The notes under the pieces were generated by a model that was not told where the DNA came from, did not search any database, and saw only the letters and a list, made by a program, of their open reading frames with translations. Source: Thermoplasmatota archaeon (lineage in GTDB: Archaea > Thermoplasmatota > E2 > DHVEG-1). Taken from it: a DNA stretch of 64,000 nucleotides. Made by a program: the position numbers and the translations under genes. Shown here piece by piece: positions 22,529-43,443 of the stretch; the stretch's first letter is position 1, and every line of letters begins with the position of its first letter. The stretch covers positions 347,669-411,668 of the forward strand of contig JAOZSQ010000001.1 in assembly GCA_029939595.1 (NCBI GenBank), written 5' to 3'.

Positions 22529-22536
22529 TATTTATA
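22529..22536 (-). promoter_or_regulatory. T4-type late promoter motif TATAAATA on the minus strand
   Basis: The plus strand reads tatttata; on the minus strand this lies about 45 nt upstream of the 22482 start codon. Confidence 0.25.
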
Positions 22537-23701
22537 ACATTCCGATTAAATTTCTAATAATGAAAAAATGATCCTCAAATATTTGACGTGGTTCAAGTTC
22601 GCCTAACGGCATCCAAAACGCCCGTTTAGCGTCATCAGATCCTCTGACTTTTGGGAGAGATTCTTCGTCTTTTAGTTGTATTAAATATGCTTTTGTGATT
22701 GTTCTTCCTCTTACTGATCTATATGGATAATCATATGTCCTTTCTTCTTTTATACTGCCTTTTAACACAGGTATAGGTATTTTTAATCTGGTTTCTTCTC
22801 TGAGTTCCCGAATCATTGCATCTATAAGTTTTTCTTCTGGATTGAGAAATCCCCCAGGAAGTGCATATAAACTCTTTCCAGGATGTGATTTTCTTTCAAC
22901 CATCAATACATGACCCGATTGGATAACAACGGCATCTACTGTTTGAAAAATGGGTTTGAATTTATCTTTGAATTCGCCCTTGTAGTGTTGTACAAAATTG
23001 TATTCTTCTTTTATATTTCTATATTCATCGGTTTTTCTGAATTCCATCAAAAAATTGATTGACGAATTTGGAACCAACGAAGATACAAAATTTTTAAATG
23101 GTTCCGGTTCAGTATAAAAGTAAGGTCCTCTAATTGATGATCCGTTAATATTTTTGTGGCTGTTTAAAAGAATTAGTTCCCATTGTGGAAACGATTTGAG
23201 ATAAAATGAAGTTGGATCTTTATCATGCCCTATTATACCAATTTTAGCCATGTTGTACATTGTTTTGCCATGTTCTTTAATAATGTACTTAATCTTTTTT
23301 TGTACTTTCAGTATCCAAAGTACATTATTATAAATGTAATCATCTAAAGGGTTTATGATAATTGGTTTTCCATCAAATTCTTCAAATAACATTTGATGAA
23401 CTTCTTCGTATATGAAAGGGTTTCGTAGGAAGCTTCTAGCTAGATTGGATGATCCTATTAGAATAATTACTTGATTAGCCAATTTAAGGGCTTCTTTGAT
23501 GATATGAGCGTGTCCATTATGTAAAGGTTGGAAACGACCAATAAAAATTAAATAATCAAATTTTTTTTTCTTTTTTGGAAAGGTTTTTGATATAGATTCT
23601 ACATATGTTTTTGCGTCTTCATCTGTTAATGGCGCATCTGTTGGTGGTTCCATAAAAGCTATATCTTCATTTTGTGGTTGTTTTAATAATGCTGTTATCA
23701 T
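22532..23701 (-). CDS. nadM: Bifunctional NMN/NaMN adenylyltransferase (archaeal NadM type) fused to a Nudix hydrolase (NatV-like)
   Basis: HxGH motif in FIGRFQPLHNGHAHII. C-terminal Nudix box GGFLNPEEKLIDAMIRELREETRL. The ORF track begins at a TTG (23713); the ATG at 23701 is the likelier start. Confidence 0.75.
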   Translation of the reverse strand: MITALLKQPQNEDIAFMEPPTDAPLTDEDAKTYVESISKTFPKKKKKFDYLIFIGRFQPLHNGHAHIIKEALKLANQVIILIGSSNLARSFLRNPFIYEEVHQMLFEEFDGKPIIINPLDDYIYNNVLWILKVQKKIKYIIKEHGKTMYNMAKIGIIGHDKDPTSFYLKSFPQWELILLNSHKNINGSSIRGPYFYTEPEPFKNFVSSLVPNSSINFLMEFRKTDEYRNIKEEYNFVQHYKGEFKDKFKPIFQTVDAVVIQSGHVLMVERKSHPGKSLYALPGGFLNPEEKLIDAMIRELREETRLKIPIPVLKGSIKEERTYDYPYRSVRGRTITKAYLIQLKDEESLPKVRGSDDAKRAFWMPLGELEPRQIFEDHFFIIRNLIGML

Positions 23702-23719
23702 ATCTTCCTCCAAGATAAT

Positions 23720-23941
23720 TCAAGATAGGTCTTTTCCCTCTTTGAATTGTTGTTTGTATGATATACGAGCTTTTTCTTCAGCTTGTTCGTATATGTTCAT
23801 ATAATCGTTTTTAATATCATTATTGAAATTAGCTGTTTGTAATGCCTCTTTAAGAAATTCCTGGTAAGGTTTTGGCTGGATAAATTTTTTTAGTTGGGTG
23901 ATCATTTTAATCTCCATTAGTTGTTTTCCCATTATACACAT
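23720..23941 (-). CDS. Hypothetical small protein
   Basis: 73 aa. Confidence 0.25.
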   Translation of the reverse strand: MCIMGKQLMEIKMITQLKKFIQPKPYQEFLKEALQTANFNNDIKNDYMNIYEQAEEKARISYKQQFKEGKDLS

Positions 23942-23962
23942 AATTTAATGGGAAAGTCAACC

Positions 23963-24310
23963 TTAGACAAATTCCAACCCATTTATATTTTGAGCATATT
24001 CTTCAAAGGTTTCCCAAAAGTCATTAATAATATTTTCTCTGCTATTCATCCATGATATACCTTTTTTGAGGTAAAGAGTTAGTAATTGTGCGTTGCGTGA
24101 TGCACATTTGATATTATCAAATGGAATTATTACTCTTTCATCTTCAAAATAAAGTTTTTTAATACAAGGCAAAGAATTGACTATTAGTGATGGAATATCT
24201 TTAAAATCAACTTGGTGTTTGCCCTTTACAGGTACATTTTTTGTGATCAATATTATTTCATTATATGGAAATATATGATTGTCACTTATATGGTAAGTTG
24301 GATTTATCAT
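23963..24310 (-). CDS. Hypothetical protein
   Basis: 115 aa; overlaps the nadE stop. Confidence 0.3.
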   Translation of the reverse strand: MINPTYHISDNHIFPYNEIILITKNVPVKGKHQVDFKDIPSLIVNSLPCIKKLYFEDERVIIPFDNIKCASRNAQLLTLYLKKGISWMNSRENIINDFWETFEEYAQNINGLEFV

Positions 24311-25122
24311 AATTCTATAAATTTTTTGAAATGTTTAGGAATATTGCAGACCGGTATTGGTTGCATTTTGTGTTGATTGGCTTTTTGAAATTTTTCATAA
24401 ATTTTCAAAACTTCTACTTGTCTATTATCCATGTTCAAAAGATTGGGTTTGTTGACAGCCCAATTTATTGCCCATTCCAATTCTTTGTATGTGGCACCGA
24501 TTTGATTTTCATCGGACCGGTTATCTTCCCATAAACCATCAGTAGGAGTGGCTTCTATAATATCTCTGGCTATTCCCAAATACCGACCCAAACCCCACAC
24601 TTCTGATTTCATCAAATCCCCAATTGGGGATATATCAACTCCACCATCTCCATATTTGGTATAAAAACCAATTCCAAAGTCTTCTACTTTATTACCGGTT
24701 CCTACTACCAAGTTATTGTTAGAACCAGCTAATGCATATAGAGTCATCATTCTTAACCTGGATTGAGTATTTGCTAACGTCAAATTGTCCAATAAAGGCA
24801 TTTCATTTTTGAATGCTTGGAATGGTTCGGTTAGATTAATTTCAATGAATGTAACATGAGGATAATTATTTTGGAGCCATTTGATATGGTTTATGGCAGA
24901 GTTACGGGCTTGTTTTTGAGGTAGTTGCATATAATATTGTGTTGGCATCACAGCAAGGGTTGTTTCATAATCTGTTTTGGCGCATAATGTGGAAACAACA
25001 GCCGAGTCAATTCCACCGGATACACCAACTACAAATCCATTCATTTTGGAATTGTCACAATATGTTTTTAGCCAATCTACTATATGTTTGGTTATCAATT
25101 TATATTTCATTTTTCCTTTCAA
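24307..25122 (-). CDS. nadE: NH3-dependent NAD+ synthetase
   Basis: PP-loop GVSGGIDSAV; 271 aa, size typical of NadE. Confidence 0.8.
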   Translation of the reverse strand: MKGKMKYKLITKHIVDWLKTYCDNSKMNGFVVGVSGGIDSAVVSTLCAKTDYETTLAVMPTQYYMQLPQKQARNSAINHIKWLQNNYPHVTFIEINLTEPFQAFKNEMPLLDNLTLANTQSRLRMMTLYALAGSNNNLVVGTGNKVEDFGIGFYTKYGDGGVDISPIGDLMKSEVWGLGRYLGIARDIIEATPTDGLWEDNRSDENQIGATYKELEWAINWAVNKPNLLNMDNRQVEVLKIYEKFQKANQHKMQPIPVCNIPKHFKKFIEL

Positions 25123-25294
25123 AAAAATTGCATTTGTAATTTTTAGTGGAAAGAATTTGCATTAAAAATCCCTCATCTGAATGTCCACTAAAAAAAAGTC
25201 GTTTTTTACAGAGTCCTAATTTGATATATTCAACATCAACCGGTTTAATTTTTTTACAATGCCAATGTTTACAATTTTTACATGCTTTTTTCAT
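25100..25294 (-). CDS. Small Cys-rich (zinc-ribbon-like) protein
   Basis: CKNCKHWHC...C in 64 aa. Confidence 0.3.
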   Translation of the reverse strand: MKKACKNCKHWHCKKIKPVDVEYIKLGLCKKRLFFSGHSDEGFLMQILSTKNYKCNFFERKNEI

Positions 25295-25296
25295 GA

Positions 25297-26445
25297 TTAT
25301 TTTATATTGAAGGTTTCTTTTAGATAATTCAAAAAAGTCTCACTTTTGCACATTCCTTTTCCTGGAGAATCACTTACTTTGGCAACTGGATGATCATTAC
25401 ATTTTATCATTTTCATGACAATTTGTATGGGTTCCAATCCCACATCATTGGTAAGATTGGTTCCGATTCCAAAAGCAGTATTGGTGTATGCTTTGAAATC
25501 ATAGTACGTTTTAATGGCTGTTGGAATAGTTAAACCGTCACTGAATATCAGTGTTTTGGTTTTGGGATCAATGCCCATTTTTTCATAATGTAGCAATGCT
25601 TTGTTACCCCATTCCAAAGGATCACCAGAATCGTGTCGCATACCATCAAACAGTTTGGAAAAGTATAAATCAAAGTCTTTTAAAAATGCGTCAAACCCAA
25701 CTGTATCAGTTAATGCAATTCCAAGTCTACCTCTATATTCTTTTGCCCAAACATCTAATGCAGCTTTTTGGAAAACGTGTAATGGTACTAGTTGTTGGAA
25801 TGCTTGTAAATATTCATGAGCCATTGTACCGATAGGTGTTATCCCAAATCTCATAGCCAGATCAACATTACTGGTTCCGATTATGTTTTGTTTGTTTTCT
25901 TTTAGGAGATATTCTAAAACAGCTATTTGCCATTTTTTAGAATATCTCCTTCTGGTTCCAAATTCGGCTATTTTAATATCTTTGCCATGTTTTCTAAGAT
26001 ATTCGGACTTTTCTGCTAGATGGATGGCTCCACCGGTCAAGTTTTTGTTGTCAGAAAAATACACTTCATTGACAGTAGCCAGGATTGGGATTTCAAAAAG
26101 TGTGGTTTGGAGCCACGGACCTTTGACATTGATACAGAGATCGTTTTTATCACACCGAATATCAACATATTGTTCGGGTACAAAGCAAAAACCTCTTAAA
26201 AAGTCTACGTAGTCTTCGCTTAGAAATCCTAATTTCAAAAGGTAGTTGGCTTCCTCATAGGTTAAATTGAGGTTTTTGAGTTTATAAATTTCTTCGCTAA
26301 TCTTCTCCAAATATGGATTGAAGTCTATGTTGGGAGTTCGGCATTTGAATTCATATTCAACCTCTACACCAGCAAAATGATGAAGTACCACTTGTTGCAT
26401 GGTGAGTTTATAAAGGTCTGTATCAAGAAGACTTGTAATTATCAT
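25297..26445 (-). CDS. pncB: Nicotinate phosphoribosyltransferase
   Basis: N-terminus SLLDTDLYKLTMQQVVLHHF...EVEYEFKCR aligns with E. coli PncB [20 protein letters not shown]...AAEFRCR. 382 aa (PncB is about 400 aa; NadV is about 490 aa). Confidence 0.75.
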   Translation of the reverse strand: MIITSLLDTDLYKLTMQQVVLHHFAGVEVEYEFKCRTPNIDFNPYLEKISEEIYKLKNLNLTYEEANYLLKLGFLSEDYVDFLRGFCFVPEQYVDIRCDKNDLCINVKGPWLQTTLFEIPILATVNEVYFSDNKNLTGGAIHLAEKSEYLRKHGKDIKIAEFGTRRRYSKKWQIAVLEYLLKENKQNIIGTSNVDLAMRFGITPIGTMAHEYLQAFQQLVPLHVFQKAALDVWAKEYRGRLGIALTDTVGFDAFLKDFDLYFSKLFDGMRHDSGDPLEWGNKALLHYEKMGIDPKTKTLIFSDGLTIPTAIKTYYDFKAYTNTAFGIGTNLTNDVGLEPIQIVMKMIKCNDHPVAKVSDSPGKGMCKSETFLNYLKETFNIK

Positions 26446-27765: not shown

Positions 27766-28611
27766 TTAAAATAAATAATCGGTTGTTCTGGCTACTTGCA
27801 TTCCACGATCCTTCATTTGCATTATAAAATCCGCTGCCATCGTTTCAAATCCAGGAACAGGAGAAGTTGCATCTTCCAATAACACAATTTTTTTCAATAC
27901 TTCATCACCAAATGCATCTACAATCTGTTCCAGAGTAGCCTTTAAACAATGACTGGAAGCCCAACCAGCCAATGGAACTAGATCGGCTTCTTCAATAGTT
28001 TCAATGGCTTCTTTGTTCATACCAGTTCCAGGGTCACTCGGAACAACAACTTCGGCTTGTAATCCACCATAATGTTCAGAAAGAAAGTTGCTTCCTTTTG
28101 TTAGGATATTCGTGACACCAAATCGGGTTGTTTCCCATTCGTCCAAAGCCTCCGCAATTGGAGTATATATACTAAATCCTGGTTGAGCGATTAAACAATG
28201 CTCCGGCCAGATGCAAAGCACATACTTGCTTTTTTGTTCAAGTTGCTCAGTATAGTAAAGTACCCATTCCAATAAAGATTTTGTTGATCCATCTGGCATT
28301 AATACAGGTACATTCGGATTGGTTGGCAACCATTCTTTTTTTCTTATGTCTTCATTGTATATCAGAGTGGGTTTGCCACCTTCAAATGGTATAGGATGTT
28401 TGCCACGTTTGTTCTTCCAAAAATGTGGATGGGCAATATGAATTCTATGGTGAGAATCCAATGTAACGTGAATATCATCTAACCGTTTGATATTATTTTT
28501 TATGTATTTTGCAAGGCGATTACCGTCTTCTTTTGCTCCTGCCACTGGCAGGTTTCCGTTTTCCAAAACAAAATCGTTTTGGGGGTCAATGATAACGAGT
28601 TGCATGTTCAT
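27766..28611 (-). CDS. pncA: Nicotinamidase (isochorismatase family, PncA-like)
   Basis: LVIIDPQNDF against E. coli PncA LLLVDLQNDF. IWPEHC against FWPDHC. Catalytic Cys context LAGWASSHCLKAT against GLATDYCVKFT. Confidence 0.75.
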   Translation of the reverse strand: MNMQLVIIDPQNDFVLENGNLPVAGAKEDGNRLAKYIKNNIKRLDDIHVTLDSHHRIHIAHPHFWKNKRGKHPIPFEGGKPTLIYNEDIRKKEWLPTNPNVPVLMPDGSTKSLLEWVLYYTEQLEQKSKYVLCIWPEHCLIAQPGFSIYTPIAEALDEWETTRFGVTNILTKGSNFLSEHYGGLQAEVVVPSDPGTGMNKEAIETIEEADLVPLAGWASSHCLKATLEQIVDAFGDEVLKKIVLLEDATSPVPGFETMAADFIMQMKDRGMQVARTTDYLF

Positions 28612-29447
28612 GTTGTCTCCTGGTCTAAATTAAGAAATGAAGCTCCAACAACTGTTAGATCGTCTAAATTGAGGATTCTCTCTTCAGCACAATCATTAAC
28701 AAATCGTTTGAATCTTCTTTGAATAAATTCTCCTTTGAAATTTTTAAAATTTAACATTTGTTTGAAAAATTCTGAATCATTCTTTTTATGATGATTCCCG
28801 CCCATTTGATGAAATGAATTAATTCCGTCACTTGCGAGAAGTAAAAATTCCAATTTATCTTCATCAAATTCTTGGGCAAAGGGTTCTTCTTTTGAAACAT
28901 TGTAAGTTATAGTATTAAGTTTAGGACCCAATGTTTGTATATGAACCTCTTTTGATAACCCATTTACTGCTCCCCATTTTTTTCTTTTTCCCTCATCTAC
29001 ATAGTATAAAGGATAGTATGGGTATTCACCACCAACCATTTTGATTGTAATTATACAAATTGTTGAACTTTCTTTCAATTTGAAAATAATGGAACCATCT
29101 CCAAAAATTATAATGTTTACTTTACCTTCATCGCTGTATGCTAGTAATAACGTGGCAAATAACGATTCGGAAGGAAGATCCATTAGTTTAGTAACTTCCA
29201 TTGATTTGTTCATTAATTCATCAATATATGTTTCATATCCTTCGTTTTTTATTAGATATGTTGAATATAAGCTGAAATGGGATAATATTCTTGCTCCCAT
29301 ATCGGAGTTTTTGGCACTGGAACAGCCATCACATAACGACATATAGAATTCTTCATAGTTATCTCCACCATAACAAAAATAGTCTTCGTTGTGTAGGTGT
29401 TGTTTGCCTTTATGAGTAAACCCATCAATGTGTATTTCTGGTTTCAT
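28608..29447 (-). CDS. PP2C-family Ser/Thr protein phosphatase
   Basis: LCDGCSSAKNSDMGARILSHFS and LLASDGINSF resemble PP2C metal-binding motifs. Confidence 0.5.
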   Translation of the reverse strand: MKPEIHIDGFTHKGKQHLHNEDYFCYGGDNYEEFYMSLCDGCSSAKNSDMGARILSHFSLYSTYLIKNEGYETYIDELMNKSMEVTKLMDLPSESLFATLLLAYSDEGKVNIIIFGDGSIIFKLKESSTICIITIKMVGGEYPYYPLYYVDEGKRKKWGAVNGLSKEVHIQTLGPKLNTITYNVSKEEPFAQEFDEDKLEFLLLASDGINSFHQMGGNHHKKNDSEFFKQMLNFKNFKGEFIQRRFKRFVNDCAEERILNLDDLTVVGASFLNLDQETT

Positions 29448-29607
29448 TTTGCCTGATAAGTTATTTGTTTTGGTTCAATAATTCTGGATTCTTTTGTTAT
29501 GTCTTTTGCTTCTTTGAGTCTTAATGACCAAAGAGGTTGTCTTAAATTATTAAGTACCCTTTTTTCTATTTTAGCTATTATTTTTATTTTGCGTTCTGGT
29601 TCAATTT

Positions 29608-29793
29608 TCATGTGGTCTCCTTATAACGATAATAAGCAAATGGAGTTCTTACTTGCCATTCTCCTGGATATTCTTTCATAACTTCAATGGCTAATTCAAC
29701 CGATTTATAATTACCATCTAAGCCACGTTTCAGTTCGGCTTCGGTTATTTGTTCTATCTCTTTTTCTCCAACAAATTGTCTTTCGTACATCAT
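29608..29793 (-). CDS. Hypothetical small protein
   Basis: 61 aa. Confidence 0.25.
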   Translation of the reverse strand: MMYERQFVGEKEIEQITEAELKRGLDGNYKSVELAIEVMKEYPGEWQVRTPFAYYRYKETT

Positions 29794-30002
29794 TTGCTCC
29801 AGAGTGGGAAGATTGAAAATATTAAACAGGATATTATAAATGTAATAATTACAATTTTTATTAGATAATTTTTAAAAGGTTTGTGAAATTTTTTATCAGG
29901 AAATATTTTGAAATTAAAGTTATATTCACTCACTGATAAAAAAATTGTAAAACCAGTAACTATTGTTATCATGATTATACTCATTATAATATAAAGAATC
30001 AT
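29790..30002 (-). CDS. Small membrane protein (2 predicted TM helices)
   Basis: Hydrophobic IIMSIIMITIVTGFTIFL and IVIITFIISCLIFSIF segments. Confidence 0.3.
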   Translation of the reverse strand: MILYIIMSIIMITIVTGFTIFLSVSEYNFNFKIFPDKKFHKPFKNYLIKIVIITFIISCLIFSIFPLWSK

Positions 30003-30004
30003 GA

Positions 30005-31726
30005 TTACCTCGTGGAAAATTGATATAAGATATTATCTTTGAAAACTAAAGCTTTTTCCTCATTACATGATAATGTTAAATCTCCATCTAATGTGTTATC
30101 AGTTACAACCCGTACTTTTTGATTTTCAGGTTGATTGGAAAACATTTCAACTTCATTGTTTTCATTGATTAATAAACCAATTCCTTGTCTAAGCACAGTG
30201 AAATTAATATCCATGAATCCAGGTATGGTTTTGTTTTGAATAGTGTAGCTTTCCATTCCTTTTGCGAACCGGATTATAAATCTTATATATTTTCTTCCTC
30301 TGTTGCCGATTAAAATGGCTACTTGATTCATATATTTTCCATAAAGAATTTTATAACCTTGTAATTCTTTTATTTGGAGGAACTGCCCTGCTAACCGTTT
30401 GCCAGTATTTTGAGGTATCAAAATATATGGTTTACCCAATATGTTTTGGTAAACCATTCCGTTCATTATTTGAGTCGCATAGGGCAGCACACCCCAACTT
30501 GTTCCATATGTTAAAATGGGTTTTCTTAACATTTTAATGTTGATTTCAACGATTCGGTCCTGCACTTTACCAATCAATGCGTTATCCGCAACATTTATTT
30601 GTTCAAATTTAGTAGTATAATCCACCTTTTCACCAGAACTTAATATTTTTGCAAAATTAGTATCAGCTTCTACTGGTTCAAGGGTTTTTGGGAGTATGAT
30701 TGTTTCCATTTGCCGATCAAATGCACTGAATGTACAATCGTCAATATAGATTACATAACCAGCTTTTACTACGTTTTTTCCCTGATGGGAAAAATGCCAT
30801 TTGATTGGATCTCGGTATTCTTTTATTTTTTCTAATTTAAAGAAGTTACTGGAAACCACTTTTTTGAAAATGGGAGCAACCACCTTTACAATACCAGCCA
30901 TATCGGGTGGTAATGTGCGTTTACCATGTTTAAAAATATCTTCTAACCATCCACGCATATTGGTGGGTATGTGATCCATCGTTCTCACACATGGAGGCAT
31001 TTTGACCCCTTTATCAAAGATAGATGCATTTTCCTTCATCCGTTTCAGATAAAGTTCTTGTTTGTCGTTATATTGTTTTGGATTATATTTGGGATGGGTT
31101 CCTTTAAATGGATGTTCTCCCAAGTACACTTTAGTTGCCAAGATTCCAAAAGAAAACCAATCACTTAGTTCGGTAAATTTTTTAGTTTGCATTACTTGTG
31201 GATCGGTCATCAATGGAGAATAGGCATCCGCAGGAAAATCTTTGGTTTGCCAAGAATCCACATCTAAAAAGTGAGGCAATGCCATATCAGCTAAACTAAT
31301 AAGGAAATTAACCTCATTCCAATCCACAATCAAACATTTTTTACTGTGGATGAATTCAAGAGTTATTGCGATTTCATCAACCAGTTTATTTGCTTGATCA
31401 ATTGTGAAATTATTGATTTTGCGAAAGGATTTGGTAAAGGTTTTACACAATGCTTCCATGTTGTCGGCATAGTGCATTGTGATACCTAATGGCGTTCCAC
31501 GTTTGTTAGTGAAAATATCAGTTGGGCGAGATATATTATCCCGTTTCAATTCCATTAATTGGTTGATTTTACCAATCGGAATCATTTTAGAAGGGTCAAT
31601 ATATATTTTGAAAACGGTTTTGTTTTTAACGCAGATATGGCCTTGACCGCCTGTGGTCTTGTAGTTAGCGTCATTCAGCTTGATGGGCTGTTTGTCAAGA
31701 TATACTGTGGTGGGTTTGAAATTCAT
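30005..31726 (-). CDS. Eukaryotic-like Ser/Thr protein kinase
   Basis: Gly-rich loop TTGGQGHICV. Catalytic-loop-like IHSKKCLIVDWNEVNF. Subdomain IX-like DWFSFGILATKVYLGEHPF. Confidence 0.5.
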   Translation of the reverse strand: MNFKPTTVYLDKQPIKLNDANYKTTGGQGHICVKNKTVFKIYIDPSKMIPIGKINQLMELKRDNISRPTDIFTNKRGTPLGITMHYADNMEALCKTFTKSFRKINNFTIDQANKLVDEIAITLEFIHSKKCLIVDWNEVNFLISLADMALPHFLDVDSWQTKDFPADAYSPLMTDPQVMQTKKFTELSDWFSFGILATKVYLGEHPFKGTHPKYNPKQYNDKQELYLKRMKENASIFDKGVKMPPCVRTMDHIPTNMRGWLEDIFKHGKRTLPPDMAGIVKVVAPIFKKVVSSNFFKLEKIKEYRDPIKWHFSHQGKNVVKAGYVIYIDDCTFSAFDRQMETIILPKTLEPVEADTNFAKILSSGEKVDYTTKFEQINVADNALIGKVQDRIVEINIKMLRKPILTYGTSWGVLPYATQIMNGMVYQNILGKPYILIPQNTGKRLAGQFLQIKELQGYKILYGKYMNQVAILIGNRGRKYIRFIIRFAKGMESYTIQNKTIPGFMDINFTVLRQGIGLLINENNEVEMFSNQPENQKVRVVTDNTLDGDLTLSCNEEKALVFKDNILYQFSTR

Positions 31727-31834
31727 ATCCGATATGCTCCATATCGTAATTTTGTTTTGGGTCTTTCCCCAAAAATTTTGTTGTCTCTTTTATTTATATT
31801 ATAATTTTCTAAAAAGGTTTCTGTCAAGAAAAAA

Positions 31835-32149
31835 TTATAAAACATAATTATGAATCAACCAACCAAGTCCTAATGATATAGCGGGAACCAAACCCCCATA
31901 TACAATTAATTTTAGAATAGTTACAGTTTTATCATCATCTTTTGGTTCTGAAATATGAGGGGCAAGTAATCCCATAATAATTACCATTCCTAATGCCGAA
32001 CCCATTGTGATTTGAGCAAAATTTAAAGGTGCCAGTGTTAAAAACCAACCCCAATGTTTTGTAATCACAAAGGCTTTCCAACACATTATAGTAATTCCTG
32101 CTACAATTAAAAAGCCGACCCATAATATTCCGCCTAAAAATTTATCCAT
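31835..32149 (-). CDS. Small integral membrane protein (3 TM helices)
   Basis: 104 aa, highly hydrophobic. Confidence 0.35.
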   Translation of the reverse strand: MDKFLGGILWVGFLIVAGITIMCWKAFVITKHWGWFLTLAPLNFAQITMGSALGMVIIMGLLAPHISEPKDDDKTVTILKLIVYGGLVPAISLGLGWLIHNYVL

Positions 32150-32272
32150 CTTTACTCCAAAACCAATTAAATAAGGTTAGACTATCTTTTTGTGGTGGGA
32201 AACTTTCTCTTTCTTTTGTTTTATATGAAACAACCCATTTTCCATCGCAATTTTCATTGGGTTCACAATTTG

Positions 32273-33718
32273 TTACCCAACATTCTGTTCCATTTTCTCG
32301 TGTATATTTTTCTCCTTTTCGGGGTAAGTTTTGCATTGTTCAATTTCCAGTGATTTGTTATATAATTTTGTTGCGTATTCGTTTAACAATTCTAATTTAA
32401 TTAATTTTGATGTCCATCGTTCAGGAATATTATCAATCCCATAATAAGCTCCGGCTAACATGCCATAAATAGCACCAACTGTATCAGCGTCATCACCCAA
32501 GTTTACAGCCAGAATACAACCTTCTTCAAAGGAATTGGAATTGTAAAATGCCCATAAAGCAGCTTCCATACTACTTGAAACTCTTCCCCAAGCACAAATA
32601 TCAGGAGGTCTTTTTTCTTTAAAAGATCCGTTGGCTATTTCCAATATTTTTGAATGGAGATTGGTATATCCTGTTTTCCAGTAATTATAGGGACCATATA
32701 ATGGAGAAAGAAGTTCTTCTTTTGGTATTTCATCAACGGCTCCCCATATTAAACCACCATAATATTCACATGCGCCAATACATTCGTGGGCTTGATGGGT
32801 GGTTTTTGAACTTAATCCTGAATTATGTATTGCTTTTTTGTGGTCAGTCCAATAGAAGAGCGGAACGGGTGCCAAACGCATTAAAGAACCATTACCTGCT
32901 TTTTCAGGATCGGCAGATCCACAATAAGCTTTTTTTTCTTTTTGAAATTTGAATTCATAGATAGCATCTCTTGTGGTCATGCCAACATCAAAACATTTTC
33001 CTATGCTACTTAGGAAGCCTTCAAAATGCTATCTGGAATAGTTTCTTATTTGGTCAAGAGGATCAAACTCGCCTTTATTTATAAGGCTTTCTGTGAGGCA
33101 TAACGCAAGCGAGGTATCGTCTGTCCATTGTCCAGGTGAAACATTGAATTCGCCTCCACTGGTCATATCAGAGATAAAAGGAAAGGTTCCTGGGCTTCTG
33201 AACTCAACAGGTGCGCCGAGTGCATCACCACATGCCAATCCGATTATACTGCCTTTGAATCTATCAATTGTTTTCATATTTTTAATATCATTTGTATTCC
33301 GGCTGCTATTAGTTTCATATATTTCCTTTAGTATTTGGGTTCTTTTAGAGGGAAGACCTTTTGTTTTTTGCATACATTGTCTTTTTCCTTTGGAATAGTC
33401 AATATTTTCATAGTCATCAAATTGTTCTGCGGTTAGGTCAACAATTTCATCATCTGGCCATTTTGCAAACCAATGGTTTGCATCATAACCAGGAATTTTC
33501 AAACAAAAAGGTTTTGAACCGGCTGGTGCAATGTGTTCAATTAGAAATTCAGTAACCACATAACAATAATTTTTAGTTGGATTTTTATCGGACCAATCTT
33601 TTCTTAATTTGGGTTTTAAATTTCTTCTGCCCAATCTTCTGAGAGCATGATATAACACATCTTTTTTGATACCCGCTTTTTCAAACATTTTGTTTGATTC
33701 TTCAGGAGATATTTTCAT
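32273..33718 (-). pseudogene. ADP-ribosylglycohydrolase (ARH/DraG family) interrupted by an in-frame TAG at 33029-33031
   Basis: N-terminal half carries [20 protein letters not shown]...[18 protein letters not shown]-terminal half carries GNGSLMR and GDDADTVGAIYGMLAGAYYG. Both halves are in the same frame with 16 sense codons between the TAG and the next Met. The TAG sits where ARH proteins have a Trp (RYxxW). Confidence 0.65.
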
Positions 33719-36357
33719 GCCGGTTCATATTGTTTGATATCATCTTGGAATTGCTTTAGTAAATCTTCGGCTTCTTCTTTATTTTTTAAAGATTTAATAA
33801 ATTCCGATTTTTTACCTCCATCAACCAGAGATTTTTCAAATATTGCAGATGCGAATATACAGTACACCATTTCTGAACCGTTTCCTGTTCCATAAGTTTC
33901 ATCATCATCCATTTCTAGTTTAGTGGGATTTCTTGAATCCGCATTAATTGCAAAACAACCATCGCTTTGAACAAGATTGGTGGAGAGTTTTACATCTTTG
34001 ACTATTCTTCCTAATGCACTATTTGCTTTTTCGTTATCTCTTTCAAAATTATCGTGCATTATCTTTTGGACTCCATGATGGGCACTGTTATATATTTGAA
34101 CAGGTCCTCTCATTTCACAAATGGATAACTTACGCAAATCGGGACGATCAGTATACAATCCCAATTTAGGATGCACTTTTTCAAAAGTTATTTCTTCTTC
34201 TGGTTTATATTTTATTTTTGTTTTTGGTGCAAATTCTATATTTAAACGTGGGAGTCGTATTCTTTTTTTGGTTCCTTTTACGTTTATATATAAAAAAGTA
34301 TCGGGTATTCTGTGAGCAGCCTTCAGTAATCTCCATTTATTCAAATTGACAGGATTGAAAATGGGTTTGGCACCGTGTTGTGTATCTTTTGGATTGATTA
34401 ATTCCTGTGGAGGATTAATTATCATTTTCCAAATATCAACATTTTTATATTTTGGAATATCTTCTTTTATATCCAGTGTTGTAGAGTCACCCTTTTCAAT
34501 AATCAAGGATTGTTCACGTTTAACTGCTGCCATTCCTTTGATGCTGTTGGTGTCGGTTACTTCTGGAATTAGATATTCTTCGGTGTTGCGTTTTCTTAGA
34601 ATAAAATATATAACCTTTTTCATGTCGGTTGAATATTTGGTGTCGGAGTATGTGATCTTACCATCTTTAATTTCTATACCTTCATTTATAATTTCATTTC
34701 CATTTTCATCTTTAAATGTTAAGGTATCACATTTATCGGTAAGTAATGATTCAATCCAACCCTTTTTGGTTCGTATAAAAGCTATAATATCTGCTTTCAT
34801 AGTGTTGTCTGTTTCTACGTTGAATTCTTTTCCTTTGAATTTGCTTTTCCTTGTTACCATTACATTTTTTGCATATTCATATAATTTAGATTTATCAGAT
34901 TTGTTCAACGCAGCAAAACAGCGGGTTATAAAAGCATTTGCTGTGAGTCTATGTTCATTTTTTAAACTGAACATAGAATTGGTATCCAAGAATGGGGGAT
35001 GAGCGTCATTTTTTTCGTTTTTATATTTAACATCAATGATTGTTAATTTAAGAAAAAATTTTGCTCGTCTGTGGTCAATTTCAAGGTCATCACCGATTTC
35101 TTTTTCCAAACCATATAACAGAGTTGAAAATTCTGATAGGTTTTCTGCAAAGGTGTTAATTGGCTCTTTTTCATATCGGTATGCACCTTTGCTGATGGTT
35201 TTAGCCAAATATGGAGAATATATTGCTCCTCCTTGATAATTTTTGACATAGTAATCAGTATCTTCTTTGTCATCATCTTTTTTTACTCTATCTGACTTAT
35301 AAACTTTTACCCCCCTATCATTTTCTGTTTTGGATAATTTTCCTTTTTTTTCAAGATATGAATACATATTTTCATAGTTTTTATGTTTTTCTAATATCTT
35401 TTTTAGAAGTTCGTGGGTTTTGGCAGCTTCTATCTCTTTTTGATATGAAGCAAATTCGGTATAGCTTGGATCAATCATATAACCACCAATCAATGTTTTG
35501 ACCACGAATTCATCTTTTGTTTTTTCGTTAGTCATATCTATGTCTGCTAGTACATCAAATACTTGAATAGTTCTTTGACTCATAGTTTTGTAGTTTTCAT
35601 TTTCATCTAATTTCCCTATATTATGCTTCCGGCGCAATCCGCAATTTATTTCCATAATTTCTTTGATTACATCATGGCATTGAATTATGTCAATTCCAAG
35701 TAATTGCCTGTTTGTGGGTTCTGAATGACCGCATATTGAAAAGTAATGGGATGCGGGATTGTAGAAACAATCTTGTGTCATAAGATATTCCATATATTCG
35801 TTAATTATTCTTATTTCATTGGCATAATAGTTTGTTTCTTCCAATGTTTTTGTTTTTAGTTCCTCTTGTAATGAAGCTATTATTTTACGCATTTCTTCGG
35901 GTGTTGGGGCTTTGAATTTATCGGGTCGTTCACTTCCATTAAAGGGAGGAAAAAAGTCACAAATTTCTTGATATATTCCACTGTTGGATTGAGATAACGC
36001 ATAACCGGCATCTTTTGCTCCTTGACCAAAACAAGATATTTTTCCAAACGAACTTTTATATGGTTTCAACATGGAAATTGCTTCAAGTGTGTTGGGTTTG
36101 CCGCCAGTGTGATATATTCCGAGCCAGTATGAATTGTCTCGTAAGTGGTATAATGAAATTTGTATTTTGAGTTTTGAGTTTTTGTTTTTGTAATCTACAT
36201 TATTGTGATAAATTTCACGAATGTACGTTCTGATTGCTCTTTCTTGAACTTCTCCAGTTTTTTCAGTAATAGGTGAACTGTGTTGTTCTGAAGTCAATTC
36301 CCTTAATGAATTATGATCTTCTTCGGGAAAATGAGTTAATGTAATTTCTTCAATCAT
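33715..36357 (-). CDS. Large hypothetical protein with an N-terminal GHKL-type ATPase-like region
   Basis: 880 aa. N-box-like [10 protein letters not shown]1-like [11 protein letters not shown]2-like [16 protein letters not shown]. The rest is unrecognised. Confidence 0.3.
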
Positions 36358-37820: not shown

Positions 37821-38162
37821 ATGGATGATGAAACTTTTTTGATACGTCTTCGTGATAATATTAAAAAGAAATACCCAAATGCTTGTAAATTTTTTGAATT
37901 AAGGGAAAAAGATCCTGTCGTGGAGAAATATTTAAAAGCATGGGAAGATAATCAGTTAAAATCTTTGCAAGATAATACACAGGCTAAACTCACTTTTGAA
38001 ATTGTACTTATTGAATGTTCTGTTATTTTGTCCAGACGAGTGCAATGTATTCTTGAACAACAAAAAAAGATAAAACAACAAAAGGCAGCACAAGAACAAA
38101 CAAAAAAATCAAATCCAACACCCAAATCAAATCCGTTTGGTGCGGAAGTTCTTAGGAGATAG
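37821..38162 (+). CDS. Hypothetical protein
   Basis: 113 aa; lone plus-strand gene. Confidence 0.3.
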   Translation: MDDETFLIRLRDNIKKKYPNACKFFELREKDPVVEKYLKAWEDNQLKSLQDNTQAKLTFEIVLIECSVILSRRVQCILEQQKKIKQQKAAQEQTKKSNPTPKSNPFGAEVLRR

Positions 38163-39636
38163 AGTTAAGAGCATTGTGTATGGTTTTTGATATTTCTTCC
38201 ATTGATGCTGGTTTTGAAAGATAACAACTATTCAATTTTTGCATTGTTTCTCCATTTACAGTTGATCCACTCATTAATATTATGGGGAAATTCTTGTCAA
38301 GTTCTCGTATTCTTTTAATGAGTTCTAAACCTGACATATCCGGCATACCTTGATCGGTGATTAGTAAATCATAATCATCAATAGTATCCTCTAATTTTTC
38401 TAGGGCTTTTGGGCTGGATTGTTCTGCTATTACCTCATAACCGAGTTGAGTTAACATGCCTTCTAGTGCATCTAAAAGGGATTTTTCATCGTCAACGAGT
38501 AGTATTGTTTCTTTATCACCTTTTATAATAACTGTATCTTCTTCAATTTTATCTTCAGTTTTGAAATATGGTAAATGTATTATGAATTTTGTTCCTTTTT
38601 TTAGTTGGCTTTCTACATCAATACTTCCATTATAGTTATTAACAATTCCATGAATCACTGATAATCCCAATCCTGAACCATTTCCAACTTTTTTGGTGGT
38701 GAAAAATGGATCAAATATTTTTTTTATGTTTTCTTTTGGAATTCCACAACCATTATCTTCAATACTAATTTGGATATAACCATTTTCTTTTTCTACATTT
38801 ATTTGTATTTTTCCACTATTATAACCCATAGCATGTTCGGCGTTTTTACATATATTAATTAAAATTTGGTGTACTTGGGTTTCGTTGCATTCAACTATGG
38901 CACTATCAGTGCTGATTTTATAATCTAAATCAATATTGGTTGGAATTGACGTTCTCAATATTTTTAGACTATTTTTAATAACGGGGATTATGTTTGTTTT
39001 TTTGGTGGTTGTTTTATCTTGTCTGGTAAAGGCTAAAATCTGGTGGATAATATCGGTTGCTCTCTTACCAGCATCTTTTATATTGTTACAGTATTGTTTA
39101 CCTTCTTCATTTATGAATCTTTCTAATAAGTTGAGATTGCCTAGCATAATGAATAATAAATTGTTGAATTCATGAGCAGTTCCACCTGCGAGTGTTCCCA
39201 ACGCTTCTATTTTTTTTGAATGATAAAGTTCATCTTCTAATTTATTTTTTTCTGTTATGTAAGATTTCCATTCTTTGATATATTTTATGGCTTTATCTAA
39301 TGTAATTTTTACATCTTCTATAACGAGAGGTTTTAATAGAAAATCAAAAGCTTCTTTGTTCATCGCAGTTCGGATGTTCGCCATGTCAGTGTCAGAAGAT
39401 ATAATTATATTTGCCATGATCCGGTCCAATTCGTTTATTTCATCCAACAAGCTCAATCCATCCATTCCAGGCATATGAATGTCTATGATGGTTACAATAA
39501 TATCGGGTTCATTGTTGAGTATTTCCAAAGCTTCTGTGGCGTTTGAAGCAAATAGAAGTGAATAATCATCTTCCAGAACACCATCAAACCAGTGATGGAT
39601 AGAAATTTCGTCATCAACTATCAGTATATTTTCCAT
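38152..39636 (-). CDS. Hybrid histidine kinase (REC-HisKA-HATPase-REC)
   Basis: N-terminal receiver (IVDDE...DIHMPGMDG...LLKP). H-box GGTAHEFNNLL. HATPase N/G boxes NAEHAM, EDNGCGIP, GSGLGLSV. C-terminal receiver (LLVDDE...TDQGMPDMSG). Confidence 0.8.
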   Translation of the reverse strand: MENILIVDDEISIHHWFDGVLEDDYSLLFASNATEALEILNNEPDIIVTIIDIHMPGMDGLSLLDEINELDRIMANIIISSDTDMANIRTAMNKEAFDFLLKPLVIEDVKITLDKAIKYIKEWKSYITEKNKLEDELYHSKKIEALGTLAGGTAHEFNNLLFIMLGNLNLLERFINEEGKQYCNNIKDAGKRATDIIHQILAFTRQDKTTTKKTNIIPVIKNSLKILRTSIPTNIDLDYKISTDSAIVECNETQVHQILINICKNAEHAMGYNSGKIQINVEKENGYIQISIEDNGCGIPKENIKKIFDPFFTTKKVGNGSGLGLSVIHGIVNNYNGSIDVESQLKKGTKFIIHLPYFKTEDKIEEDTVIIKGDKETILLVDDEKSLLDALEGMLTQLGYEVIAEQSSPKALEKLEDTIDDYDLLITDQGMPDMSGLELIKRIRELDKNFPIILMSGSTVNGETMQKLNSCYLSKPASMEEISKTIHNALNSIS

Positions 39637-39642
39637 TTTCCC

Positions 39643-41754
39643 TCATTTCAGATGTTTGTTTAAGATAGGAATTAGTTTTGCTAATTCCAGGGGTTTAGTT
39701 AAATAACCATTCATTCCAGACAATATACCTTTTTCTTTTTGTTCGTCAAAAGCATCAGCCGACAATCCGAATATAGGAATGAATTTACAATCGTCATAAG
39801 TTCTAATTTTTTTTGTTGCTTCAATTCCATTCATTCCAGGCATGTGAACGTCCATTAAAACCAAATCGGGTTTAAATCGTCTTGTTAAAGTAACAGCTTC
39901 GTAACCATCATGAGCAATTTTTATTGTCAATCCCATGTCTTTTAAAAGGATTTCAACTATTTGTTGGTTCATGGGTTCATCTTCAACAACTAATAATGTA
40001 TTAGATGAACTAAAGGAGGCAATTTCAATTTTTGGTTTTATATCAGCACGATTTTTTATTATTTTTATTGGGATGGTTACTGTAAAGGTACTACCCACAT
40101 CCAACGAGCTTTCTACTTCAATTTTTCCATCTAGTAAATTGATTAGGTTTTTTGTAATAGATAATCCCAAACCTGTTCCTTGGTAGTGTCTGGTGTTTGA
40201 ATTGTCTACTTGGGTGAATGGTTTAAAAATATCGGTTAGTTTGTCTTCGGGAATTCCAATTCCTTCATCTGATATTTCAAATACGAGGTTTTCACCGGTT
40301 GATGTTGAATTGAAATTTATATATTTATTTGTAGGTGTGAATTTTATGGCGTTACTAATAAGATTGATTAAAATTCTTTGGAGTTTGTTTCTGTCAGTGA
40401 ATATAATTTGGGGTAGGTTACTAAAATTATAAACGAATTTTATTCCTTTTTTGAAAGCGGTTGATTTGAGACCATGAAAAACTGTTTTTATGAGTATTTC
40501 AATGTCTATTTCTTCATTTTTTATTTCGTCTTTTCCTGCCTCAATTTTAGATAAATCAAGAACATTATTGATTAGTTCTGTCAAATTTCCACCAGCTATT
40601 TTTATCATATTTAAATAACCAAGTTCTTTTTCTCCAAATTGGATTTTATCTTGTCGGTTAATAAGTATCTGAGCAAACCCATATATAGAATTCAATGGGG
40701 TCCGAATTTCATGACTTATGTTTGCGAGAAACCTGCTTTTTGCTATATTGGCTGTTTCAGCTTGTTCTTTTGCTTTTATTAATTCCATTGCTATTTTCTT
40801 TTTGTCAGTTATGGGTATAGCGTAATGTAAAAGAAGATCATCACCAAGGGGACACCAGTAAGTATCATACCATTCACCACCTGATAAAACCTCTGCATAT
40901 TGTATTTTATTATCGTTTAAGCATTTATCCGCCATACAAAAACTACAATGTGGATGCGTTGGTGGTACTTTGCCCGTTCTCTCAAAATATTCCTTATCTT
41001 CACTATTAATAAACTGACATCTGCCAAAGGAACTCCAACAGTATTCCCCTGTTTTTATACCTAAATTAGAAGCAGTTTGGTTGACAGCAATTATCTTTCT
41101 TTTTTTGGTTGTAAGAAGTGTTACAAAAGGAAGTCCATTTAAGATTAGTCGTAATCGCTTTTCATTTTCTTTTAACGCTTCTTCTGCTCTCTTTAATTCT
41201 GTAATATCTGTAATTATAGAAACAAATCCTATGAGTTTTCCCTGTTCATTTCGCTTATATTCCCAATCAACAGCAACATCAATTATATCTCCATTTGGTT
41301 TTTTATTTTGTCCAGTATAAGGAGTGGGTTCTGGTTGTTCTTTTTTGAGATATTCAAAATATTCTTTCAGGCTTTTAGTTTCAGATTCAGTTAGAGCGTT
41401 ATCCCAAATTTTCTTTTTTCCTATAATCTCATCTATTGGATAACCTATTATTTTAACATAGGGTTCATTGCAATAGACAACAGTTCCATCTAAATCATTT
41501 TCTTGTACTTCATAAGGAATAGTATCAGCTAAAGTTCGGTATTTTTCTTCACTTTCCTTTAGATTTTTTGCGTATATTTCTCTAAAATATCCAAAAATAA
41601 AACCTATTAGGATACCAGTTATGGTTGATACTCCAACTATTTCAAAATGATATCCTAATGTTGGATGTTCAATAGTGTGGTGAATATATGAAAGAAAATG
41701 AAATAGTGCAAATCCTATAAGGATAAAACATAAAATGTTTATATATTTTTTCAT
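39643..41754 (-). CDS. Membrane-anchored PAS-domain hybrid sensor histidine kinase with a C-terminal receiver
   Basis: N-terminal TM segments; PAS-like regions; H-box ISHEIRTPLNSIYGF. HATPase LISNAIKFT, SDEGIGIPEDK, GTGLGLSI. Receiver LLVVEDEP...MDVHMPGMNG. Confidence 0.8.
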   Translation of the reverse strand: MKKYINILCFILIGFALFHFLSYIHHTIEHPTLGYHFEIVGVSTITGILIGFIFGYFREIYAKNLKESEEKYRTLADTIPYEVQENDLDGTVVYCNEPYVKIIGYPIDEIIGKKKIWDNALTESETKSLKEYFEYLKKEQPEPTPYTGQNKKPNGDIIDVAVDWEYKRNEQGKLIGFVSIITDITELKRAEEALKENEKRLRLILNGLPFVTLLTTKKRKIIAVNQTASNLGIKTGEYCWSSFGRCQFINSEDKEYFERTGKVPPTHPHCSFCMADKCLNDNKIQYAEVLSGGEWYDTYWCPLGDDLLLHYAIPITDKKKIAMELIKAKEQAETANIAKSRFLANISHEIRTPLNSIYGFAQILINRQDKIQFGEKELGYLNMIKIAGGNLTELINNVLDLSKIEAGKDEIKNEEIDIEILIKTVFHGLKSTAFKKGIKFVYNFSNLPQIIFTDRNKLQRILINLISNAIKFTPTNKYINFNSTSTGENLVFEISDEGIGIPEDKLTDIFKPFTQVDNSNTRHYQGTGLGLSITKNLINLLDGKIEVESSLDVGSTFTVTIPIKIIKNRADIKPKIEIASFSSSNTLLVVEDEPMNQQIVEILLKDMGLTIKIAHDGYEAVTLTRRFKPDLVLMDVHMPGMNGIEATKKIRTYDDCKFIPIFGLSADAFDEQKEKGILSGMNGYLTKPLELAKLIPILNKHLK

Positions 41755-41758
41755 TGGT

Positions 41759-42118
41759 TTATATTAATTGTTTATAAATTATCTCCTCGTCATACAGGAT
41801 TTCTAAAAAGCTTTCTATATCTTCTTCTTCCGAGTGGAATGCAACCATTACTTTTTGTTGGGTTACGTCAATACTATAATTATCAATATTGGAATCGTCC
41901 AATATTTGTAATAGATCCATTCCAAGAAGTTCTCTTTCATGAAAAGTAAAGACATATTTATCGTCCAATATTTTTTTTGCAAAATCTTCTGATACGTCTT
42001 TTACTTTGTCTGTGGCATATGCCACTACTTTTTCTTTTACCTCTTTTATTTCATCTTCAAACCAATCTTGAACCACAGAGATTACAAGAGAAATTAAAAA
42101 ACTGGTTTCAAAAATCAT
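41759..42118 (-). CDS. Small acidic protein translationally coupled to the nuclease gene
   Basis: 119 aa, Asp/Glu-rich; start overlaps the nuclease stop (ATGA). Confidence 0.3.
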   Translation of the reverse strand: MIFETSFLISLVISVVQDWFEDEIKEVKEKVVAYATDKVKDVSEDFAKKILDDKYVFTFHERELLGMDLLQILDDSNIDNYSIDVTQQKVMVAFHSEEEDIESFLEILYDEEIIYKQLI

Positions 42119-43443
42119 TTAGTCTCCTTATCACATAATCTTTTTGTATAATGATTATAATTTCCTTGTATGGCATATATTAACTCGTTTCTTTTACATT
42201 CATTATCCGTTACAGGATATTCTTCATTCCATCTCATTGCCAATGCTAGTTCAATATTATTAAAAATACTATATCCCAAAGCTTCTGAATAAGCTTCTTG
42301 CATATATAGTTGGGTCCGAGCAATGTAACCTCTTGCTACATCTGCTGGTGGTTCTGCTTTTTTGACATCATCGGTGTCATAACCAACTTCAAAATCACAT
42401 TCACCATATAATCTTGGTTCCCCTTCTAAGTTTTCTGTAAATGGATGATTACTTCTATCACCGTTCACTTCCCCTAATGCTGGCCACAAATTGTGAATGT
42501 CGTTATGTGCTCTGTTTCCAGTTATATGATAATGTTCAGCACAACTTCTGCCATATCGGTAGCTTCCCCCTCTTTCAATACAACCAGGATTTGAGTTGTT
42601 TTTATCAATCCATTCTGGTAATCTTCCTAACATCTTATTGGCAGGAACCACATGTTCGGCTTCAATACGATTTTGTCTGGTTTCGTTCAATCTGTATTTC
42701 GTTTTACATCCAGCCAGATCAATAGTATGTAGATCTGTATAATTACAATGACAATATATAGTGGTTTTCCAAAATTCATGTACCAAATATAATCGGCTTT
42801 TGGCAATATTAAAACTGGTAATTGTTTTGTTTCCTATGCCGGTGTAAGGCGTATCATATCCGCTATCGGATGTCCCTTCTTTTTCAACTAACAATACCGA
42901 ATTTTCAGCATTGGGAGTTCCAAATCCACCATCATAAGGGGTGGTTGCGTTTGCCCATGATATGTCATTGTCACCAGGAAGGTTAGAAGATGTTCTTTCC
43001 ATTGTGGCTTTTTTGGTGTTGTTTCCCGCATACCATTTACTGATGGTATCCATTATAACGCCGGATGAATTAACCAACATTAAAATTTCACCAGAATTGG
43101 CTAATGTGCCTTTGGTGGTTTGATTGGGGGTTACAACGGGAATTACGTTTTTAGTGATTAGAAAGAATCCGTGTGGATTAATCTTGCCATCTAGGATGAT
43201 GTCTATGCCACCATCTTGGGTTTTTAATATCCATCCTGTCAAGTCAATAGTTGCATCAGAATTGTTTTTGAGTTCTATCCATTCGTGATTGTAGGATGTT
43301 GTCATTCCCATCCAAGCAATTTCATTAAATGTAACGGGTGGAGGTTCGGCAGCATCCAGCATTACAGCACTGAGCAAAATTACAGTTAAAATTGCAATTA
43401 TTGCTAGTATTGATGCACCGGTATAAAGTAAATATTTTTTCAT
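42115..43443 (-). CDS. Secreted lamin-tail-domain plus endonuclease I (Vvn/EndA family) nuclease
   Basis: Signal peptide. LTD-like FNEIAWMG...HEWIELKN...IDLTGWIL. Endonuclease I motifs EHVVPAN and NDIHNLWPALGEVNGDRSNHPF. Many Cys. Confidence 0.65.
   Translation of the reverse strand: MKKYLLYTGASILAIIAILTVILLSAVMLDAAEPPPVTFNEIAWMGMTTSYNHEWIELKNNSDATIDLTGWILKTQDGGIDIILDGKINPHGFFLITKNVIPVVTPNQTTKGTLANSGEILMLVNSSGVIMDTISKWYAGNNTKKATMERTSSNLPGDNDISWANATTPYDGGFGTPNAENSVLLVEKEGTSDSGYDTPYTGIGNKTITSFNIAKSRLYLVHEFWKTTIYCHCNYTDLHTIDLAGCKTKYRLNETRQNRIEAEHVVPANKMLGRLPEWIDKNNSNPGCIERGGSYRYGRSCAEHYHITGNRAHNDIHNLWPALGEVNGDRSNHPFTENLEGEPRLYGECDFEVGYDTDDVKKAEPPADVARGYIARTQLYMQEAYSEALGYSIFNNIELALAMRWNEEYPVTDNECKRNELIYAIQGNYNHYTKRLCDKETK

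Follow-up and report, generated by a model that had tools for sequence, protein, structure and literature searches.

Do the two neighboring open reading frames (ORFs) at 32273..33718 on the minus strand of a 64,000-nucleotide stretch of contig JAOZSQ010000001.1 (the window, i.e., the whole stretch of DNA that was analyzed) encode two ADP-ribosylglycohydrolase (ARH) proteins, or are they parts of one gene divided by an in-frame TAG, and what does that TAG mean for the gene product? The contig is best described as a lineage-isolated T4-like huge phage of ~427 kb (426,929 bp), with the window representing ~15% of the genome. A sequence-only reading had placed three explanations side by side, namely a fresh nonsense mutation, an amber allele readable in a suppressor host and a sequencing error. 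The evidence favors the nonsense mutation and lowers the other two, because a second assembler reproduces the TAG, the window holds no tRNA and the gene is otherwise intact. We consider it probable that the locus is a dispensable accessory gene, here called YunG-ARH after its two modules, in which a recent TGG-to-TAG change has produced a loss-of-function allele or young pseudogene.

One Reading Frame with an Internal TAG

On the minus strand, the sequence around the junction reads ...AAC TAT TCC AGA TAG CAT TTT GAA GGC..., which translates as ...NYSR, stop, HFEGFLSSIGKCFDVGMTTRDAI.... The ORF listing gives one ORF of 229 amino acids (aa) at 33029..33718 (coordinates including the stop) and one of 235 aa at 32273..32980, both on the minus strand, while a stop-to-stop scan displays them as consecutive segments of one frame, of 231 and 251 codons, with the TAG at 33031..33029 as their sole divider. 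Between this TAG and the first ATG of the second ORF lie 16 sense codons (33028..32981). Such a one-frame arrangement of both ARH halves is well past chance. Coordinates, sequence, 16-codon count and shared frame had all been given exactly in the sequence-only reading. Owing to the TAG, the locus holds no uninterrupted coding sequence for a single polypeptide; a product of 481 aa results if Trp replaces the stop. The parts of the locus are the following, with the basis of each in brackets.

32273..33718, minus strand: whole interrupted frame, a YunG-like module fused to ARH, with 481 sense codons, an internal TAG and a terminal TAA (sequence, ORF list, Pfam)
33029..33718, minus strand: N-terminal ORF of 229 aa, ended by the TAG; YunG-like module, linker and first 82 ARH residues, including E25 and T52-D53-D54-T55 (ORF list, Pfam, alignment)
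33314..33718, minus strand: YunG-like module, residues 1 to ~135 (Pfam, HMMER homologues)
33275..33277, minus strand: ATG of Met148, the start of the ARH part, in register with the initiator Met of stand-alone ARHs (alignment)
32417..33253, minus strand: PF03747 match, residues 156-434, running across the TAG without a break (Pfam profile search)
33029..33031, minus strand: in-frame TAG (CTA on the plus strand) at the position of an invariant Trp (sequence, alignments)
32981..33028, minus strand: 16 sense codons, HFEGFLSSIGKCFDVG, that separate the TAG from the following ATG, aligned to the conserved ...EGYLSSxGxCFDIG... and including metal-site residue D97 (alignment)
32273..32980, minus strand: C-terminal ORF of 235 aa with an internal Met start; remainder of the ARH fold with its GDDADT metal-binding motif (ORF list, alignment)

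The TAG Occupies an Invariant Tryptophan Position

The joined protein, with Trp at the stop, matches PF03747 (ADP_ribosyl_GH) in a single stretch that spans profile positions 1-287 of 287 (E 3.6e-73; 247.2 bits against a gathering cut-off of 26.2). When the protein is aligned with 16 cellular homologues (54-58% identity), the flanks of the TAG are collinear, no gap falls at the junction, and the TAG column holds Trp in all 16. The ARHs encoded by Xanthomonas phage XbC2, Salmonella phage Munch and Bacillus phage G have the same residue, as do the 480-aa metagenomic protein P0196 and the two closest solved structures, PDB 2cwc and 6dre, which align across ~300 residues with E values of 1e-63 to 1e-65. 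Altogether, Trp occupies the column in 22 of the 22 homologues compared. Trp has a single codon, TGG, and TAG therefore lies one transition away, as the sequence-only reading had held when it placed a Trp at this site. The ancestral codon was presumably TGG, which would make the change G-to-A on the coding strand and C-to-T on the plus strand. That the two halves might not be contiguous in homologues had been named as grounds for abandoning the idea of one split gene; they are contiguous in every homologue aligned. An intron, an intein or a frameshift is not needed to explain the arrangement, since in the 16-homologue alignment the halves are collinear with their counterparts and no residues are gained or lost.

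The closest NCBIfam model is Tri1 (NF041672; E 4e-80), with 269.2 bits falling below the equivalog cut-off of 490 bits, and DraG (TIGR02662) likewise scores 144.6 bits against an equivalog cut-off of 337 bits. By these scores, the protein is a relative, not an equivalog, of Tri1 and DraG. Its best ARH homologues are cellular, at no more than 58% identity. With the DraG/Tri1-type ADP-ribosyl-arginine hydrolases (PF03747; including 6dre, which matches the NCBIfam Tri1 model, and the Thermus ARH 2cwc), it shares the full-length profile match as well as E25, TDDT, D97 and DxDT. It differs from them in its N-terminal YunG-like module, in being phage-encoded, in being interrupted by a stop and in its scores below the equivalog cut-offs. 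The ARHs of jumbo phages (Xanthomonas XbC2, the ~350-kb phages of Erwinia, Serratia and Salmonella, and Bacillus phage G) are members of this family as well (31-43% identity), are likewise found in very large phages and keep the Trp. Unlike the gene described here, they are intact, stand-alone and ~290-320 aa long, and they are too distant for orthology to be drawn from synteny or identity.

The first ~135 residues of the frame form a module of their own, which matches YunG (PF24585) at residues 22-118 with 30.2 bits against a gathering cut-off of 27. The earlier description of one canonical ARH/DraG-like protein thus stands for the joined halves, which match PF03747 along its full length, and fails for this separate N-terminal part. 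In an exhaustive HMMER search, stand-alone YunG-like homologues of 126-137 aa (52-56% identity) end at the module's own end, and elsewhere the module is joined to unrelated C-terminal domains. The combination of YunG with ARH is absent from what we inspected: none of the best 150 HMMER matches aligns to both modules in its top-scoring stretch, and none of seven matches retrieved combines the two. Read by eye, the sequence 5' of the Met148 ATG has no Shine-Dalgarno-like motif, and no stop lies between the modules; hence, the gene reads as a YunG-ARH fusion.

Condition of the Gene Outside the Stop

If the TAG were an old lesion, other damage might be expected around it. Within 32273..33718, we observed no second stop, no frameshift and no lost catalytic motif. 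Of the 115 columns in which all 16 homologues agree, the split gene matches 102, and 12 amino-acid deviations from invariant columns are mostly conservative. E25, T52-D53-D54-T55, D97 and D263-x-D265-T266 (ARH-domain numbering), all in invariant columns, are present; we take these residues, from the structures of DraG and ARH3, to make up the binuclear metal site. Of the features of a pseudogene, the locus displays a single in-frame stop at a conserved sense codon and collinear flanks, without further decay. The gene being otherwise intact with all catalytic motifs kept, the lesion looks young.

A functional split enzyme would consist of the 229-aa product and a 235-aa product, the latter made by re-initiation at the ATG at 32980, which together assemble to an active ARH. 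An in-frame ATG is indeed available 16 codons past the stop. However, the sequence 5' of this ATG, read by eye, contains no Shine-Dalgarno-like motif at a usable distance, and the 16 skipped codons encode a conserved segment with the metal-site residue D97. Intact full-length homologues that we inspected (shorter fragmentary HMMER entries were left out) show no split at this place. A split enzyme is therefore unlikely, and we would rate it as highly so.

TAG Usage in the Phage

Whether the TAG is read as a stop at all can be judged from its use elsewhere in the window. On the coding strands, 89 ORF stops divide into 45 TAA, 23 TAG and 21 TGA, and many of the TAG stops are embedded in TAGGAGnnnnnATG, where they overlap the Shine-Dalgarno sequence, or ribosome-binding site, of the following gene. 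In the stop-to-stop scan of the window, the ARH pair is the only protein-matching coding-strand gene split by TAG, which amounts to one in-frame TAG among about 75-90 genes; the other same-frame TAG junctions on coding strands divide separate tandem genes, each of which has an ATG of its own preceded by a Shine-Dalgarno-like GAG. Back-up stops are not enriched behind TAG terminators, with the median next in-frame stop at 11 codons as compared to 6 for TAA and 5.5 for TGA. Upon readthrough, 4 of 16 TAG-ended genes checked would extend 64-106 codons into the following gene. TAG is thus a normal terminator, and the phage uses the standard code.

These counts bear directly on a genome-wide or late-gene recoding of TAG of the kind known as code 15. 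Lak and crAss-like phages, among the large uncultivated phages, are reported to recode TAG (Borges et al. preprint). According to the same preprint, phage reassignments are limited to TAG to Gln and TGA to Trp, in-frame TAGs of recoded phages are numerous and concentrated in late genes, and standard-code relatives of recoded phages are poor in TAG terminators. The present gene resembles those of code 15 phages with suppressor tRNAs in having an in-frame TAG inside a phage gene. It differs in that there is one such TAG, aligned with an invariant Trp rather than Gln, in an accessory gene, in a phage where TAG is a common terminator; the portal, protease, scaffold, capsid and fiber genes in the window carry none. 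Neither the Gln assignment nor the depletion of TAG terminators fits here. Code-15-type recoding is contradicted within the 64 kb examined, and we regard it as extremely improbable. The sequence-only reading, which had taken TAG as otherwise a true terminator and genome-wide recoding as unlikely, agrees with these observations on both counts: TAG ends 23 of 89 ORFs, no other in-frame TAG is seen, and the one that is seen aligns with Trp.

A more restricted form of readthrough would leave the code as it is. In this case, a suppressor tRNA(CUA), encoded by the host or by the phage elsewhere in its 427 kb, would insert an amino acid at the TAG and allow full-length YunG-ARH to be made, possibly limited to the infection stage at which the suppressor is expressed. 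The otherwise perfectly intact gene is compatible with such a mechanism, only 15% of the genome is visible, and standard-code phages near recoded lineages can carry suppressor tRNAs (Borges et al. preprint). In addition, the TAG is followed by C, a context in which termination is comparatively weak in E. coli. Several observations point the other way. ARAGORN and Rfam searches detected no tRNA and no Rfam family in the window; of the Logan contigs followed outward, one reaches ~1 kb past the window, and three further look-ups returned no record. The RNA fold around the TAG is no better than that of shuffled sequences (z = -1.2), so that no readthrough-stimulating structure is apparent. TAG ends about a quarter of the ORFs, with the extensions and the lack of enriched back-up stops given above, the gene has the single in-frame TAG in the window, and the reported phage reassignment of TAG is to Gln, not Trp. 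We hold amber readthrough to be quite unlikely on balance. Its narrower version, in which a standard-code phage with an amber-suppressor tRNA outside the window uses the single TAG at a Trp codon to gate YunG-ARH to one infection stage, appears very unlikely. If true, the gated gene would represent an early or minimal form of stop-codon recoding, with Trp at TAG so far unreported for phages, and a tRNA(CUA) elsewhere in the genome would turn the locus into a rare snapshot of incipient stop-codon reassignment.

Support for the Base Call

A single-base difference in a metagenome-derived contig might also come from an error in sequencing or consensus building, or from a minority variant that entered the consensus, with TGG in the true or dominant genome and the gene intact. 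The intact remainder of the gene suits this explanation, as does the fact that the sole second copy is 100% identical and probably derives from the same data. This copy is a Logan contig of 17.9 kb from SRR21545386, produced by another pipeline (per-run assembly), which is 100.000% identical to the window across 16,450 bp and displays both ORFs identically split. The NCBI 427-kb contig and the Logan assembly hence agree on the TAG, and the latter continues unbroken for its 17.9 kb through the site. Since the Logan contig was assembled separately, it argues against an assembler-specific error. Substitution errors, moreover, seldom survive into a consensus at normal coverage. Taken together, an artefact or minority variant seems unlikely.

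A comparison with related phages had been proposed as a further check. In part this was informative, as the ARHs of XbC2, Munch and phage G (31-43% identity) have the Trp, while no close relative was found. A blastn search of INPHARED phages, searches of IMG/VR with peptide patterns and with an exact DNA pattern in which the last two bases of the codon were wild-carded, and searches of JGI metagenomes and GTDB genomes detected none. Both ARH halves, the kinase, the capsid protein and an 880-aa protein encoded upstream of YunG-ARH form singleton 90% clusters in a collection of 15 billion proteins.

A Probable Recent Loss-of-Function Allele of an Accessory Gene

The favored explanation is a single-base substitution, TGG to TAG, at the invariant Trp codon of the YunG-ARH gene of a standard-code phage. 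Translation would end after residue 229, yielding the YunG-like module and the first quarter of the ARH fold (82 residues). Lacking D97 and the C-terminal GDDADT motif, this N-terminal product should be catalytically dead. The 3' ORF is probably untranslated because it has no ribosome-binding site of its own, and its product, missing the N-terminal motifs and the 16 skipped residues, is predicted to be inactive as well. Before the substitution, the enzyme was probably an eraser of Arg-linked protein ADP-ribosylation, acting within an accessory island of host-takeover, signaling and NAD+ genes; this is the most economical interpretation, given that the protein is closest to the DraG/Tri1 type and sits in a signaling/NAD+ island. 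The modification that it removed could have been inflicted by the host or by a competitor, or could have been the phage's own.

Several considerations weigh against this explanation. Intactness of the gene is equally expected if it is still under selection with the stop read through, so that this feature alone does not separate the two possibilities. Huge phages are expected to carry tRNA genes, and the tRNA scan covers the 64-kb window only; the other ~363 kb may hold phage tRNA genes. Support for the TAG is at the level of assemblies, NCBI and Logan, which agree. The Logan contig probably stems from the same reads or population rather than from an independent strain, and it does not show fixation of the allele. 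Finally, no close relative that might show whether the TAG persists was found in the collections searched.

A natural precedent for a knock-out of this kind may be found in RB69. This T4-like phage naturally carries a truncated, non-functional adfN (gp30.3), a counter-defense gene whose product removes ADP-ribose; a 1-nt insertion leads to an early stop, and experiments have shown that the phage is viable and its counter-defense lost (PMC11257639). Common to both cases are an ADP-ribose-removing accessory or counter-defense gene, a T4-like phage and a single-nucleotide lesion with an early stop. The two differ in that the adfN product is a NADAR-fold protein whose substrate is ADP-ribosylated DNA, in that its lesion is an insertion instead of a nonsense substitution, and in that the consequence for YunG-ARH is predicted where that for adfN was measured.

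At face value, the locus adds one further case of a point mutation inactivating an accessory gene of a phage. It would also provide a modest data point on the conflict between phage and host over NAD+ and ADP-ribose, suggesting that reversal of ADP-ribosylation is dispensable and was recently lost in this phage. For annotation, the two ORFs are best merged into a single disrupted YunG-ARH gene instead of being listed as separate ARH family proteins.

Genes Flanking YunG-ARH

Immediate neighbors of the disrupted gene overlap it at both ends, and a promoter-like sequence lies a short distance downstream.

33715..36357, minus strand: 880-aa orphan gene, whose TGA overlaps the ATG of YunG-ARH as ATGA (ORF list)
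32142..32336, minus strand: 64-aa ORF, whose start falls within the ARH frame, 64 nt from the 3' end of that frame (ORF list)
31798..31827, minus strand: perfect sigma-70 consensus, TTGACA-18-TATAAT, 12/12, 5' of the Ser/Thr kinase gene (consensus match only)

The ATGA overlap suggests translational coupling between the 880-aa gene and YunG-ARH. The 64-aa ORF and a 104-aa ORF downstream of ARH could suffer polarity from the premature stop; the sigma-70 consensus match, if functional, would protect the kinase, PP2C and NAD genes from it. For the 880-aa protein, no homologue but itself was found among 5.8 billion proteins, searches of Pfam, PHROG, PADLOC and PDB gave no match even at E = 1, and the AlphaFold single-sequence model is unusable (mean pLDDT 32). 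We considered this gene as a possible ADP-ribosyltransferase partner of ARH, for which no family, PDB match or usable model speaks. Assignment of ARH to a defense system was rejected, as it has no PADLOC match. No ART or PARP domain was detected among the window proteins scanned, and a Tre1/DraT-type partner for ARH was not identified in the window.

On the same strand as ARH, the window encodes a Ser/Thr kinase and a PP2C phosphatase, the enzymes NAPRTase, NAD synthase and NMNAT-Nudix, PspA, an HD protein, two PAS/HisKA/HATPase/REC hybrid kinases, and Cache and REC proteins. The 573-aa Ser/Thr kinase (kinase-PP2C region 28608..31726, minus strand) belongs to a family of ~75 full-length proteins (~560 aa) at 26-39% identity, encoded on metagenomic contigs as long as 528 kb. 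In two relatives inspected, at 36-37% identity, the kinase adjoins PP2C (contig L008, 8077..11683; contig L009, 8231..11047), which suggests that the kinase-phosphatase pair is conserved in a group of large phages. No ARH lies within 10 kb of the pair in these two distant relatives. Contig L009 (Logan SRR31017047) instead encodes, at 14694..16082 and ~5 kb from kinase-PP2C, a protein of 462 aa that matches the PARP catalytic, PARP_reg and, faintly, WGR domains, by which ADP-ribosylation writers are seen to occur in this phage group. Relatives with the kinase-PP2C pair and no adjacent ARH, one of them with a PARP-like gene in its place, suggest that the ARH gene is accessory and variable. L008 further carries a periplasmic-binding-type gene (NMT1_3) at 17031..17921. 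A gene of comparable kind is present in the window at 20450..21280 on the plus strand, where an ABC transporter substrate-binding protein (PF04392, E 3.7e-11) is the lone opposite-strand ORF in a minus-strand block.

The NAD+ genes make up a complete phage-encoded route from nicotinate to NAD+ (22532..26445, minus strand).

25297..26445, minus strand: NAPRTase (513 bits against a cut-off of 379)
24307..25110, minus strand: NAD synthase (TIGR00552, 180 bits against a cut-off of 64)
22532..23701, minus strand: bifunctional NMNAT/Nudix (425 bits against a cut-off of 397)

This enzyme set is unlike the two-gene NARP pathways outlined in PMC13464706. Restoration of NAD+ as a counter-defense is a candidate role for the route.

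Two-component signaling genes are also phage-encoded and extend over 38152..47050 on the minus strand. The following features of this region were assigned by domain scan.

38152..39636, minus strand: hybrid histidine kinase, REC-HisKA-HATPase-REC
39643..41754, minus strand: hybrid histidine kinase, PAS-HisKA-HATPase-REC
42115..43443, minus strand: protein with a Lamin-tail domain and Endonuclease I
45842..46546, minus strand: Cache-domain protein
46640..47050, minus strand: stand-alone receiver

Morphogenesis Genes and Paralogue Arrays

The window carries a T4-type morphogenesis block with portal (PF07230), S77 prohead protease, scaffold and Gp23 capsid genes.

6917..7588: S77 prohead protease

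The capsid protein is ~30-34% identical to the capsids of Campylobacter CP21-like and Vibrio schizoT4-like phages. Close to the fiber genes, at 52646..54424 and 60791..63762 on the plus strand, repeated paralogous genes are found, two of which encode proteins of ~176 aa starting with MLEFKKDGI... and three or four of which encode proteins of ~205-220 aa starting with MDLT(T).... Exact-product look-ups of two ORFs at 59-64 kb returned no record, which may reflect assembly breaks at repeats.

Directly 3' of the T4-type capsid gene, at 10210..18269 on the plus strand, ~20 tandem small ORFs of 55-290 aa encode very basic, Lys/Cys/Gly-rich, paralogue-like proteins. Many of them end in a TAG that overlaps the Shine-Dalgarno sequence of the following gene. 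Four members have no Pfam match. Most start with MI(S/T/N/H)R...(L/I)xE, as in MISRQYITEKH and MISRLTEKHEG. With the S77 prohead protease at 6917..7588, these N-termini resemble the T4 capsid-targeting sequences cleaved after Glu, and the small proteins may be packaged as internal head proteins.

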